A DNA stretch of 32,000 nucleotides from assembly GCA_046350815.1 (NCBI GenBank), contig JAXLZO010000001.1, positions 840,001-872,000 on the forward strand, given 5' to 3'. Below, in pieces: positions 138-4,706 of the stretch. Position 1 is the first letter of the stretch; the number at the start of each line of letters is the position of its first letter. This stretch comes from Candidatus Saccharimonadota bacterium (lineage in GTDB: Bacteria > Patescibacteriota > Gracilibacteria > BD1-5 > UBA2023). Below the pieces are notes generated by a model. It saw only the letters and a program-made list of their open reading frames with translations, was not told where the DNA came from and ran no database searches. Position numbers and translations under genes: made by a program.

Positions 138-2651
138 TTACTTTTTTATAGAACTACCCATTTGATTCTGGGTTGTTGTTTGTTGTGCTAACTTCTTTGC
201 TCTTTCCTCATCTTTCTGAGCTTTGATCTTCTCTTTGTGTGCTTCCTGGTTTTGTTTGAATTTCTTTTCATCATCTGTCACTTTGTTGCCGTAGTCATTG
301 ATTTTTTTCTCTACAAATTCTCGTGGTTTTGCGTATTTTTCTCGAGAAATAGCACGGATTTTTACTGGGTCTTGCTTTGGTACTGTCAGATGATCATTAA
401 TCGGAGCAAAGGTTGTTGCGGAGAATACTGGTGATGGCATACCATCAATGAGAAGTTTTGTATAGATATCATATTTTCTCAGATTTTGGAGGTCTTGTGC
501 GGATATAACATCTTCATCACCCATAACTTCCACCATTTTTGGGGCATCTTCTGGGCCGACTTGAAATGAAATTGTGGATCCTACGTTACCAAATACAGCT
601 CACTGAACTACCTCAGACATCTGAGATATGTATTGATTTGCCATTACAAGTGAGAGTCGATATTTGCGTGCTTCTGAGAGGATGGTTGCAAAGGAATCAG
701 TAGCAAAGTTCTGAAATTCGTCTACATAAAGGAAGAAGTCTTTACGATCTTTTTCAGGAATATCAGCACGAGTCATCGCGTCGATCTGGAATTTCGTTAC
801 CATCATAGATCCGAGAAGAGCGGAAGTATCTTCACCAATACGACCTTTTGAGAGATTGATGATACAGATTTTTTGATTATCCATGATCCATCTGAGGCTG
901 AATGGATTTTTTGGTTGTCCGAGGATATTGCGCATCAGGGGGCTGGAGAGGAATTGTCCAACCTTGTTGAGAATCGGCCCAGCCGCCTCGACCATTTGAT
1001 TCGGTGCCATAGCTTCATACTCTGAGAGCCAAAACTTTTTGAGGAGAGGATCTTTGACTTTATCGATGATTTTTCTCCTATACGACGCATGAGTGAGAAC
1101 CACGGGGATGGACATAATCGTCTCATCACCAACATCGAGAAGTGATAGTACCGTGTTTCTGAGGATGTGTTCCAGACGTGGTCACCAAGAATCTCAGAAA
1201 ATTCTTTTAAAGACACTCACAAGACCAGATGCTACAATAGGCTGCAGATCTCTATGGACACTCTCAAGCATGTTAAATCCGATAGGATAGTTGAGATCCG
1301 TCGGATCAAAAAGTACCACATCATTTGTTCTACTTTTTGGTATCGAAGCGAGTATCGTTTCGGCAAGATCTCCATGCGGATCAATAAGCCCAACGCCGCG
1401 TCATTTCACAATATCATCATAGATCATGTTCTCGAGGAGTGTTGATTTCCCCATACCTGTTTTTCCGATGATATAGACGTGACGACGACGATCGAGAAGT
1501 GGTGAGCCAAAACTTTTTTGAGTTCCTCGAAAATTGGTTTTTCCAATAGGTGTCAGAGTATCATCGTCTTCTATGAGTGGGAGATTCGCTGGTGGTTCGA
1601 ATTTTTTGGAAGTTACCCAATTGATACCGGGAGTTTTGACGTAGAGTGTAGGTAAATGAACGAGACCTGCTACTTCGGCACTACAAAAATACCATGGATG
1701 AAAATGTTCTCGTTTTGCTACTCGATCACCCGATATGGGTGCTATTTTATCTAAGACAAAGCCATTACGATCAGGAAGATTGAATATATTGAGCGCACCA
1801 ACCATTTCTCTGATATGACTCTTCGCTTGGATAGGATCATTCTCATAACTTACGACTGCGAGTGAGGTATAATAACCAAATCATGCGAGTTTTTGCTTGA
1901 TAGCGAGATCGAGATCCTTGTCTCCTTTATCTCATTCCGTATGACGTGTTTTCACATCCTCTGAGGTGGCAGGAGGACTAAAAATCATTCAAAATCACCG
2001 AGTAAAAGCAAAAAACATGCTTACAAGGAGAGCGCTCGATACTCGCAAGAAAAATCCCTTCTCAACTAATACATGTTTATACCAATGGGGGAGATCATGT
2101 GAGAGGAGTTTTTCAATCTTCTTCTCATCTTTCCAATACCGATCAATGACAGGGCTGAAATGTACCTGATAGAGGGATACTTCTCATTTTTTTCCTCGAA
2201 GAAGAGCTGAGGTGAGAGATGAATGCGGGTCTATGCCTTCCTTTTCACTCTTATCTTTGAACGCCGTATACATCTTGATTGGATACGGGTATGGCTCGCG
2301 CAAATGAATATGGCCAACGGTAGCGTGCTCTTGCGGTAGATACTCGTCACGTTCGATAATTTCGATATCGGGATAGTGCGCGAAAAATTGTGATTTCACA
2401 AAATCACAATAAGGCTTCGGTGTAATAAAGAAGAACCGAATTGTCCCATGAACATTCGCGATTTCAAAAGTAAAATCTACCCTGTTCTTCTGATGCTTGT
2501 GAATGCCGAGAATGTTGATTGACTCAATAGAGTGATGGATGATATTGAGGATTTGTTCCGCGACAAAAACACCCTTCTCATTATTTCGATCAACTCGAAT
2601 TTCAAGGATTTGATAAGATCACTGTGTACGTGGAAGGTGTCGGTAGGGCAT
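138..2651 (-). CDS. TraD/TraG/VirD4-family (type IV coupling protein-like) P-loop ATPase, 837 aa
   Basis: Track ORFs 138-536, 600-1115, 1401-1805 and 2184-2399 share one frame and are joined by in-frame TGA (e.g. 600-602, 1401-1403). ATG at 2651, TAA at 138-140. Walker A IIGKTGMGKST, Walker B-like FFLYVDEFQNF. The segments WGPRLEHILRN and AVFGNVGSTISFQVGPEDA read straight through TGA=Gly. Confidence 0.75.
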
Positions 2652-2673
2652 ACGAAAGACGTCTGATTATACT

Positions 2674-3648
2674 CTAGAAGATGCTATCGTGCAAGTCCTG
2701 ATTTTGTATTTTTCGATTGAGGAGATTTTGGTTCTCATGTTGCTGGTACGCATGGAGTACACAGCTGATGGTTGGTATAGATCGCTCGATGACTTGTTGG
2801 TCCTTTGGGAGAAGAGGATCTTCTTTTGACTCTATGAGCATAAGAGTCGCAATCATCTCTCCAGAAAGTTCGAGCACATATTGATGACACATTCATACAT
2901 CTTTTGATCCGCCAGCTACTTTCATATATTCCTCTGAGTTTACTTTCTCATAGAGAAGATCTGATCCGCGAGAGCTATCATAGCGGAGTATTTCAGTGTC
3001 TTTGAGGATTGGGTGTTTCTCTATGAGTATAACCTGTTCGAGACAAAATGCATTCGTAAAATAAACGAGCATATCCAGAAGCCCGGCTCCATCGCTTGCA
3101 AGATAGATCGAGAGCTGCTGCATGAGGGACTGGTATTCTGAGAGTTGATGATTTGCTTCCCTGAGATGATGATTCATCTTCGCCATCGTGAGTCGATAGA
3201 ATCGATGCATCATTCCTGGATTCTCAGCTTCAAATTTGAGAAGATCCGTGTCAGAGAGGATAAATACACGACAAAAACTCTCCGCTATTGCCTTGACTGG
3301 TTTGAAAGATCGGCCAAAGATTGTTCATTCTCCTATCGTGTTTACACCATTTATCTTTGCAATGGTTTTATCGCCGGTCCGACTTTGCGTTTGGATAGCG
3401 ATATTTCCGCTGATGAGTATATAGATATGTTTGTCCTCCCCAGGAGAGAAGATAATATCACCTTTCTGGAAATTTCGCTCATATTTTGTGCGCTCTGCTT
3501 CAGGAATGATAGAGTTGAGGACGCTTACAAGCGGGGAAAAATTACTTTCCTTACGGAGCACTTCCAGAGCATGACGACGTCATTCATCGGTCGATATATC
3601 TTTTTTATTCCATCGAACATGCTCTTTGTTGTGAGATTCATGAGACAT
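2674..3648 (-). CDS. Cyclic-nucleotide-binding (CAP_ED-like) domain protein with a GAF-like C-terminal half, 324 aa
   Basis: ORFs 3325-3561, 2893-3213 and 2674-2892 are in one frame and joined by TGA. ATG 3648, TAG 2674-2676. N-terminal half FQKGDIIFSPGEDKHIYILISGNIAI...IGEGTIFG resembles the cNMP-binding beta-roll. I see no HTH. The C-terminal assignment is a guess. Confidence 0.55.
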
Positions 3649-3650
3649 AA

Positions 3651-4706
3651 TTACGATTTAGGATTATTGTTCTTGATATAACGTTGTTTGGTTTCTTCAG
3701 AAATAATGCCCTTTCAAAGAAGATAATCAAAATATATTTCAAACGAATACATACCCTCTTGTCGCGAGAGCTCAAGTACTGAATAGAGTGCATGTGTTTG
3801 AGATTTTGCGATACATGACTTTACTGCATCGTTACTCAGGAGGAGTTCACGTACTGCAACACGACCAGAATTATCTGCTTTTGCTACGAGCACTTGGGCG
3901 ATCACAGCTGTGAGAGACATAGAAAGCTGTGTTCGGATCTGATTTTGTTGACCGCTTGGAAACGCATCAATAATACGATCAATACTCTGAATCGCATCAT
4001 TGGTATGGAGCGTCGAGAATACAAGATGTCCTGTCTCTGCGAGGGTCAATGCTGCTTGGATCGTCTCTGGGTCACGCATCTCACCGACGAGAATAATATC
4101 TGGATCTTCACGAAGTGATGATCGTATTGCCTTGGCAAATGAGCTCGTATGAGATCATACTTCTCTCTGGTGTATGAGACATTTTTTCGAATGAAAACTA
4201 TATTCGATAGGATCCTCGATCGTGATGATATGTTTTTGTTGATTTTGATTGATGTATTCGATGAGAGATGCGAGTGTGGTCGATTTACCAGATCCGGTCG
4301 GTCCAGTCACGAGCACAAGCCCTGATTCTTTTTTGGTTAGGTTGATGATCTCTTGGGTGAATCCCATACTCTCAACATTGGGGATGATCTCTGGAATGAC
4401 ACGAATCGCGAGACTCGTACCAGATATATCACGAAATGCATTCATGCGATAGCGTCTATTGCCAGTACAGTAGGAAAAATCTGTCTCACCGAGTGTTTTG
4501 TATTCTTCGGTTTTTGAAGCTGGGAGTATGTCTCTGAGGGTTGATTCTATCTCGCTCTCAGCAATGACTCACTCTCCCTCGAGTAAGACGATATTACCTG
4601 ATTTATCACGAATAAAGGGGGATCTTCCTGAGGAGATGTGAAGATCTGATGATTCGAGGATGTGGATTTGATCAAGGAGTGATCAGAGACTCTCTTTGGT
4701 GAACAT
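3651..4706 (-). CDS. pilT: Type IV pilus retraction ATPase PilT, 351 aa
   Basis: ORFs 4155-4445 and 3714-4079 are in frame. ATG 4706. The TGA at 3714-3716 is read through to TAA 3651-3653. Walker [10 protein letters not shown], then [14 protein letters not shown] and IDRIIDAFP as in PilT. The stop is 2 nt from the next start (3648). Confidence 0.9.

Follow-up and report, generated by a model that had tools for sequence, protein, structure and literature searches.

Patescibacteria, the candidate phyla radiation (CPR), account for much of bacterial diversity, and their host-attached life depends on type IV pili. Second-messenger control of such pili is known in several forms: c-di-GMP binds the MshEN domain of MshE/PilB, a FimX-PilZ-PilB route operates in Xanthomonas, and cAMP-Vfr/CRP controls pilus genes. 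Canonical coupling proteins of type IV secretion systems (T4SS) have two transmembrane helices at the extreme N-terminus. In Patescibacteria, a recent survey (Quinonero-Coronel et al. 2025, PMC12102498) counts 5,713 VirD4-type homologues of these proteins in 2,918 genomes, of which 148 are near virB4, and states that their exaptation "cannot be ruled out", while the essential T4SS cluster of Saccharibacteria has been described as lacking recognisable coupling or relaxase proteins (Wang et al. 2023, PMC10633639). Here we analyse a locus in which one such homologue stands next to a pilus motor. It lies in a 32,000-nt stretch of contig JAXLZO010000001.1 ("the window"; positions follow its forward strand) and consists of three genes on the minus strand: pilT, a gene for a protein with a cyclic-nucleotide-binding (CNB) type domain, referred to as the sensor, and a gene for a large VirD4-like ATPase, referred to as the ATPase. 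The original prediction took this triplet for a nucleotide-gated module for DNA uptake or transfer, attached to the type IV pilus.

The reading that we prefer, with a probability of roughly 60%, is that of a vertically inherited transcription unit with two layers, found in one subclade of UGA-recoded Gracilibacteria and made of a pilT-sensor core and a captured orphan ATPase. In the first layer, PilT would have a dedicated partner, composed of a CNB ligand-binding barrel, a long helix and a GAF-like domain, which would act by protein-protein contact, with no DNA-binding output, and adjust PilT-driven retraction in response to a small ligand. In the second layer, added once in the ancestor of the subclade, a membrane-anchored VirD4/TrwB-like orphan ATPase would be placed directly downstream; it is probably co-transcribed with pilT in the triplet clade, and its capture would suggest a role in, or co-expression with, a process linked to pilus retraction in that clade. 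That the sensor interacts with PilT, and that the ATPase is in any way connected with the pilus in function, are steps that we infer.

The synteny pattern, which is established, carries most of this reading. Sensor-bearing loci (numbered L001 and so on) were collected by an exhaustive HMMER search with P0001, a protein 97% identical to the sensor of the window, by look-ups of the encoding contigs, by a metagenome scan with the sensor alignment, and by tblastn under code 25. Besides the window there are 27 such loci, several of which duplicate one lineage; a word-indexed search found only 8 sensor homologues, an under-count explained by public gene calls that are fragmented or mistranslated. 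The gene next upstream of the sensor gene is pilT in 19 of the 19 judgeable loci (the window, L001, L002, L007, L087, L089-L092, L094, L096-L099, L102 and L105-L108), and the adjacency holds even though sensor identity to that of the window falls to 22-30%. In the closest cases the gaps between the two genes are 2, 4, 3, -16 and -10 nt, and such near-zero or overlapping gaps suggest translational coupling.

The ATPase gene follows directly after the sensor gene, on the same strand and at a spacing of 22-89 nt, in ten lineages (window/L001, L002, L007, L089, L090, L092, L093, L095/L096, L097 and L098), among which sensor identity goes down to 23-27%. Eight of the triplet loci have an ATPase match of near-full length, and a quick neighbour-joining tree without support values groups all eight as a single clade, sister to Gracilibacteria that do not have the arrangement. 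L094 is the lone exception inside the clade: there an ORF resembling, by eye, an IS1595-type transposase (~1850-2700) comes directly after the sensor and is followed by the end of the contig, an apparent insertion of a mobile element into the operon at the position of the ATPase. The genes flanking the triplet differ, with at least four contexts seen. Three tightly spaced co-directional genes are nothing unusual in bacteria; the adjacency of PilT and sensor and the conservation of the triplet exceed chance. From gene order and tree we read an older pilT-sensor pair, behind which the ATPase gene would have been captured a single time, with the order kept while the neighbourhood was rearranged. 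Synteny of the triplet in related genomes, on which the original prediction had staked its case, is found in ten lineages of one subclade, and the unit that is conserved proved to be PilT plus sensor, with the ATPase optional.

Several neighbours of these loci may be recorded here. A gene for the PriA helicase lies directly downstream of the ATPase gene in L002 (12625-13062), L007 and L089 (4530-4763), and is convergent to the sensor gene in two loci with the pair only, L091 (3388-4419) and L105 (3960-4922). In L002, a chemoreceptor-like gene with HAMP and MCP-signal domains (6203-7750) is divergent from pilT, and in L087 a T4SS_pilin gene (PF18895, VirB2-like, 2946-3320) is found ~2.7 kb upstream of the pilT-sensor pair.

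Gene structure and genetic code are likewise established. The genes of the triplet are intact only if TGA codes for an amino acid, and Gly suits the positions that are conserved. ORF calling under the standard bacterial code (table 11) splits all three into fragments, and the in-frame stops of the triplet are TGA in 17 cases out of 17. When TGA is read as Gly, the PilT motif becomes HQREVG and the sensor motif GEG; the latter position is encoded by a true Gly codon in relatives P0003 and P0006 and appears as a spurious Trp in code-4 database entries (GEWTIF in P0001). This restoration of conserved motifs indicates that the window comes from a code-25 genome of the Gracilibacteria/Absconditabacteria type, and the organism names of the homologues are consistent with the assignment. 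ARAGORN finds no tRNA genes in the 32-kb window, hence no UGA-reading tRNA to back code 25, and no Rfam family reaches its gathering threshold there. TGA is read as a sense codon over the entire window (1-32000), and table-11 ORF lists are fragmented throughout it. Coordinates, co-direction and spacing as given in the original prediction agree exactly with the recomputed reading frames (Table 1), including the gaps of 22 nt between ATPase and sensor genes (2652-2673) and 2 nt between sensor gene and pilT (3649-3650).

A promoter-like site precedes pilT (Table 1); with 10 of 12 matches it is the top site in positions 1-5200, and it is on the gene strand. A sequence scan gave no terminator-like sites on the gene strand inside the triplet. 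This picture, drawn from motif matches, is consistent with a single transcription unit and is no proof of one.

Table 1. Features of the pilT-sensor-ATPase locus, in window coordinates
Feature	Position	Strand	Details and basis
ATPase gene	138-2651	-	837 aa; 10 in-frame TGA; terminator TAA
Sensor gene	2674-3648	-	324 aa; 3 in-frame TGA; terminator TAG
pilT	3651-4706	-	351 aa; 4 in-frame TGA; terminator TAA
ATPase, N-terminal alpha/beta region (DUF8128)	1659-2615	-	residues ~13-331, including the hydrophobic helix; model, PF26449 on homologues
ATPase, hydrophobic helix	1983-2057	-	residues ~199-223 (helix at 200-224 in the model), putative single membrane anchor; hydropathy and model
ATPase, P-loop core	402-1553	-	residues 367-750, all-alpha insertion ~467-591; model, alignment
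ATPase, Walker A	1440-1466	-	G396-T404
ATPase, Walker B	717-734	-	hhhhDE, residues 640-645
Sensor, CNB beta-barrel	3232-3480	-	residues 57-139; non-canonical phosphate-binding cassette GEGTIFGRSFKPV; PF00027
Sensor, C-terminal alpha/beta domain	2680-3081	-	residues 190-323, probably GAF-like; model
Promoter-like site 5' of pilT	4769-4797	-	TTGAAA, 17 nt, AATAAT

The domain identities of the three products are established to different depths. The product of pilT scores 403.3 bits against the curated TIGR01420 model for PilT/PilU (cut-off 319.1), over residues 9-343 of 351, and matches T2SSE (PF00437) with E = 6e-50. In the recoded translation its motifs are intact, with GPTGSGKST for Walker A, ILVGEMRD for Walker B, and the His box. 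The C-terminal AIRNLIRE motif of PilT is linked to retraction function; here AVKSCIAK stands in its place, which shares 3 of the 8 residues and does not tell PilT and PilU apart. To judge from its profile match, the protein is a retraction-type ATPase of the type IVa pilus, of the PilT/PilU family, and the PilT call made earlier is sound.

The fold of the sensor is of the CNB type. PF00027 is the sole Pfam domain found in it (44.5 bits, cut-off 27.5). An AlphaFold2 model built on 19 homologues, with a mean predicted local distance difference test score (pLDDT) of 78.5 and values of 86-93 across most of the barrel, consists of the CNB beta-barrel (residues 57-132), a 40-residue helix (144-184) and a C-terminal alpha/beta domain (190-323). 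Foldseek matches it best to CNB domains in CRP, PKA and PKG, at probability 1.0. The cassette that would hold the phosphate is unusual: in a gapless HMMER alignment to the regulatory subunit of PKA (5kbf), the canonical Arg is aligned with a Lys that is invariant in the sensor family. The sensor keeps the Gly-Glu of the cassette, with E107 and K116 as invariant columns, and has D/E/P and then V after the Lys, as against S/T/A and then A in the canonical form, so that the pattern G-E ... R-[ST/A]-A is absent from the sensor family. With Lys for the phosphate-binding Arg, and an acidic residue or Pro after it, binding of cyclic nucleotide monophosphates is not established, nor is the nucleotide gating proposed in the original prediction, even though the CNB-type fold itself was named correctly.

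The C-terminal domain of the sensor is plausibly GAF-like. In the model its secondary structure elements run H-E-E-E-H-E-E-H, an order compatible with GAF. Sub-threshold matches to GAF, GAF_2, GAF_3 or CodY-GAF occur in the C-terminal domains of 6 of 8 orthologues (E = 3e-5 to 1e-2; families PF01590, PF13185 and PF13492 were compared), and the best of them reaches 24.7 bits against a cut-off of 27 (E = 3e-5). The sole match of this domain in a profile search of the PDB is 3ci6 (E = 0.86), which we take to be the GAF domain of PtsP, and a five-sequence sensor profile has no match in the PDB. The Foldseek search used the whole model, in which CNB matches dominated and the C-terminal domain was not resolved. 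The GAF-like label in the original prediction keeps on its side these signals in orthologues, all of which are below threshold.

No helix-turn-helix (HTH) family matches the sensor at E <= 0.1 in the Pfam scan, and the C-terminal 135 residues are modelled as alpha/beta, in line with the earlier remark that no DNA-binding output could be seen. Since it has no HTH, the sensor is predicted not to be a transcription factor. It is probably dimeric. On the lack of a DNA-binding output, the strict adjacency to pilT and the long dimerisation-type helix, we commit to the sensor being a dedicated partner of PilT, and most likely it modulates retraction through protein contact.

The ATPase belongs to the VirB4/VirD4/HerA superfamily and is a VirD4/TrwB-like P-loop ATPase. 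It exceeds the Pfam cut-offs of TrwB_AAD_bind (40.1 bits, cut-off 20.5, residues 389-719), T4SS-DNA_transf (28.7 bits, cut-off 20.1) and TraG-D_C (26.6 bits, cut-off 22), which bears out its description as coupling-protein-like; the margins are weak, and every curated NCBIfam cut-off for coupling proteins is missed (at best 34 against 250). A sequence-profile search of the PDB returns TrwB as the sole match (E = 7e-4), with an alignment that spans the regions of Walker A and Walker B. The model used here is that of P0009, 92% identical to the ATPase (pLDDT 70). Foldseek matches it to TrwB, VirB4, HerA, DotL and Cagbeta, and superposition on TrwB is best by domain, with template modelling scores of 0.57-0.60 normalised to the target over ~430 columns. 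VirB4 was considered as the primary label and rejected, given that the profiles above threshold are all of coupling-protein families and that VirB4 profiles cover the P-loop only.

Residues K397, T398, G401, K402, S403, D644 and E645 are invariant across 24 homologues of the ATPase. The hydrophobic helix of the N-terminal region is the highest Kyte-Doolittle window of the protein, its equivalent scores 1.5-2.6 in 23 of 24 homologues, and the model ends in a charged C-terminal helix. PF26449 (DUF8128) is precomputed on the ATPase of L001, 96% identical, and on most of 120 homologues listed; the local Pfam scan does not list it for the ATPase of the window, whose membership follows from the homologue annotation and full-length alignment. 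By sequence, then, we assign the protein to a CPR family of ~800 aa that combines DUF8128 and a TrwB-like domain, and on the model we commit to it as a predicted membrane-anchored member of the VirD4-like family of hexameric motors.

The distribution of the ATPase is established as well, and it is much wider than that of the triplet. The family counts more than 3,900 matches, most with an N-terminal PF26449, and in a scan of one genome per species relatives are found in at least 596 species genomes. Carriers include Gracilibacteria, Peribacteria/Peregrinibacteria, Saccharibacteria, Dojkabacteria, Buchananbacteria, Moranbacteria, Uhrbacteria and Berkelbacteria, and the matches extend over the full length at 35-57% identity. 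PilT or the sensor lies within 10 kb of the ATPase gene in 1 of the 80 species loci returned. The ATPase is a CPR-wide chromosomal core gene, no mobile-element gene, and nothing special to this locus, which corrects the picture drawn in the original prediction.

Outside the triplet clade, neighbours of the ATPase gene were identified by eye from their sequences. A ~350-aa protein that resembles HTH or sigma-70 region 4 proteins is encoded directly upstream on the same strand in 42 loci among L022-L086 (for example, L045:659-1717) and could serve the ATPase as a conserved regulator or partner; further upstream, 28 loci have a topoisomerase I-like gene. MurG/FtsW-like cell-wall genes also recur, a DprA-like gene lies within 4 kb in 7 CPR loci, and over 86 loci neither VirB4 nor a relaxase was recognised in the genes that recur. 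Pilin-like genes, counted by motif, are not enriched around the ATPase gene; the detector behind this count is insensitive and missed pilin-like genes flagged by Pfam.

Some of these loci have features of their own. A second, divergent ATPase paralogue, 32-34% identical to the protein of the window, is encoded directly upstream of the first in L022, L023, L027, L030, L039 and L079, which fits the approximately two homologues per genome in the literature. In L109 a paralogue of 30% identity (3610-5742) is encoded on the strand opposite to the sensor gene, ~1.5 kb downstream of it. Two Gracilibacteria without the triplet, with ATPases 50-52% identical to that of the window, have genes with the N_methyl prepilin motif after the ATPase gene, some fused to leucine-rich repeats (L003:12569-16028 and L004:16535-18901).

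In the rest of the window, no VirB4, relaxase, ComEC, ComFC or cyclase was recognised in a Pfam scan of ten products and a reading of the other translations, several small ORFs remaining outside, so that the earlier statement that no other T4SS component is present stands within this coverage. Neighbours read by eye from their translations are RlmN, DnaG, RpoD, GatA and Obg; at the same position L001 has RlmN, DnaG and sigma-70 domains by Pfam. There is no step in GC content at the triplet. Pilus components are present at a distance: a prepilin peptidase (A24_N_bact and Peptidase_A24, 28212-29090), a protein with FecR and Glucodextran_B domains (29727-31325) and a pilin-like protein with the N-terminal motif GLTLIEV (31270-31992) are encoded 24-27 kb from pilT, unclustered with the triplet. 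A plus-strand gene at ~4846-6660, divergent from pilT, codes for a ~600-aa protein and contains a 96-nt tandem repeat (5263-6569, 13.6 copies, 89% identity), translated into 32-aa units of the form ELKSITGMQxGLGIPKIEDLEKLTVWCQANNT; long ORFs are open there on both strands, and its Pfam matches are spurious and due to low complexity only.

A number of observations weigh against the two-layer reading. Neither the pair nor the ATPase needs the other, as each occurs alone: five lineages (the L087 group, L091, L105, L107 and L108/L109) have the pair without the ATPase, and almost all of the CPR has the ATPase without the pair. The triplet arose once, so its persistence could partly be inheritance and not selection. 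Co-transcription is something we infer from gene spacing only, and shuffled sequence yields no fewer promoter-like and terminator-like sites in total. To go by its cassette, the sensor may bind no nucleotide, or nothing, and the copy in the window gave no GAF-clan match. The confidence of the ATPase model is moderate, and VirB4 outranks TrwB by Foldseek E-value.

The main rival, which we regard as unlikely, holds that the adjacency is mechanistically empty. The ATPase would be the distant coupling protein of a VirB4-type T4SS, or a housekeeping protein, and its gene would have landed downstream of the sensor once. According to the 2025 survey (PMC12102498), coupling-protein genes are often far from virB4, as this rival would have it, but the same source gives the T4SS of S. 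epibionticum as essential and the T4CP (type IV coupling protein) homologue as not essential in a Tn-seq screen, which makes it unlikely that the ATPase is an obligate T4SS subunit. That the triplet originated once, in one clade, that the ATPase elsewhere in the CPR has unrelated neighbours of housekeeping type, and that the pilT-sensor pair occurs independently all suit an empty adjacency. It fits less well with an order and a spacing of 22-89 nt that outlast the rearrangement of both flanks (at least four contexts) and a divergence of the sensor to ~25% identity, and with an N-terminal architecture of the ATPase unlike that of canonical coupling proteins.

In competent bacteria, DNA uptake begins with PilT retraction. 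The triplet could be one machine, in which PilT retraction brings DNA to the envelope, a VirD4-like hexamer pumps it across the membrane, and the CNB/GAF sensor gates both by a cyclic nucleotide. We consider this quite improbable. It would account for a triplet order kept in ten lineages with at least four flanking contexts, it accords with the place of the ATPase in the VirD4/VirB4/HerA/FtsK superfamily, related to DNA translocases, and PriA adjoins the module in five loci (L002, L007, L089, L091 and L105). The CPR are naturally competent, and their conserved com set (ComEC, DprA, ComFC) names no ComFA-type motor (Wang et al. 2023, PMC10633639), which means that a motor could be missing. The DprA-like genes near the ATPase in seven loci would suit the same machine. 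The adjacency of dprA and topA is, however, common in bacteria generally, which makes this link a weak one. Set against one machine are the 79 of 80 species loci in which the ATPase has no PilT or sensor neighbour, the Lys in place of Arg in the sensor cassette, the failure to recognise a cyclase, ComEC or ComFC in the window, and the lack of pilin-like gene enrichment near the ATPase in the insensitive motif count; DNA binding has no support from this analysis. The nucleotide-gated module for DNA uptake or transfer of the original prediction is, for the same reasons, doubtful: no result shows uptake or transfer, and the ATPase is mostly found without any pilus context.

That the genes are the remnant of a conjugative or mobilisable element, or pseudogenes, as their fragmentation under table 11 and the matches of the ATPase to conjugation-type Pfam families might suggest, is effectively excluded by in-frame stops that are all TGA and by frames conserved at full length in many genomes, and there are moreover no recognised relaxase, VirB4, integrase or repeat boundaries, housekeeping genes as neighbours (by eye, with Pfam agreeing in L001), no GC step at the locus, and an ATPase that at least 596 species genomes carry, its chromosomal contexts being conserved.

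The locus gives two leads: a putative ligand-sensing partner dedicated to PilT, strictly linked to pilT across deep divergence, and the capture, in one clade, of the orphan ATPase by the pilT operon, pointing to a role related to the pilus or to DNA uptake. Although confined to one subclade, the triplet offers a handle on two questions, the regulation of pili and the role of orphan T4CPs in Patescibacteria. A wider suggestion, for which we see only a slim chance, is that the CPR-wide orphan ATPase is a pilus-associated translocation motor, for example the cytoplasmic-membrane motor for DNA import that is otherwise missing from competence in these bacteria, and that in the triplet clade it is co-expressed with PilT and co-regulated by a new type of CNB/GAF sensor of a non-canonical ligand. 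Were this so, the triplet would be the earliest genomic hint at what a family found in thousands of Patescibacteria genomes does. There is also a practical side: gene calling under the standard code or code 4 fragments or mistranslates these genes and hides the sensor family from routine homology searches.

Among the described systems, the nearest relatives of the ATPase are the orphan VirD4-type T4CP homologues of the 2025 survey (PMC12102498). The ATPase of the window is of the same family, chromosomal, CPR-wide, of ~800 aa and usually away from virB4 or a relaxase; what sets it apart is the place of its gene directly downstream of pilT and the sensor gene, a context absent from the survey's passages on T4CPs and Gracilibacteria, and the word PilT does not occur in its text. 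The original claim that no such system has been described is therefore half right, in that the orphan homologues were already published, while neither the pilT-sensor-ATPase context nor a CNB/GAF-like partner of PilT was found in the literature searched. With TrwB of R388, VirD4, TraD, DotL and Cagbeta the ATPase shares membrane anchoring and a P-loop domain into which an all-alpha domain is inserted, at a sequence identity of ~16%. In place of the two N-terminal transmembrane helices of the canonical proteins it has a soluble N-terminal domain of ~190 residues and a single hydrophobic helix, and it is without a relaxase or T4SS partner nearby.

The first layer compares best with the second-messenger control of pili, in which a small-ligand sensor likewise meets a pilus motor ATPase, and where the CNB fold recurs in Vfr/CRP. 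Here, in contrast, the sensor is a separate protein with CNB and GAF-like domains, genetically tied to the retraction ATPase PilT and not to the assembly ATPase, and its cassette has Lys for the Arg that binds cAMP. With the CRP/FNR regulators it has in common the N-terminal CNB barrel and the long C-helix, which in those proteins is the dimerisation helix, but its C-terminus is alpha/beta and GAF-like, not a winged-helix HTH. The parts of the locus are thus known, namely PilT, the CNB fold and the orphan T4CP/DUF8128 family of the CPR; what appear new are the strictly conserved pair of pilT and a CNB/GAF-like partner, and the clade-specific triplet operon that joins the pair to the orphan ATPase.

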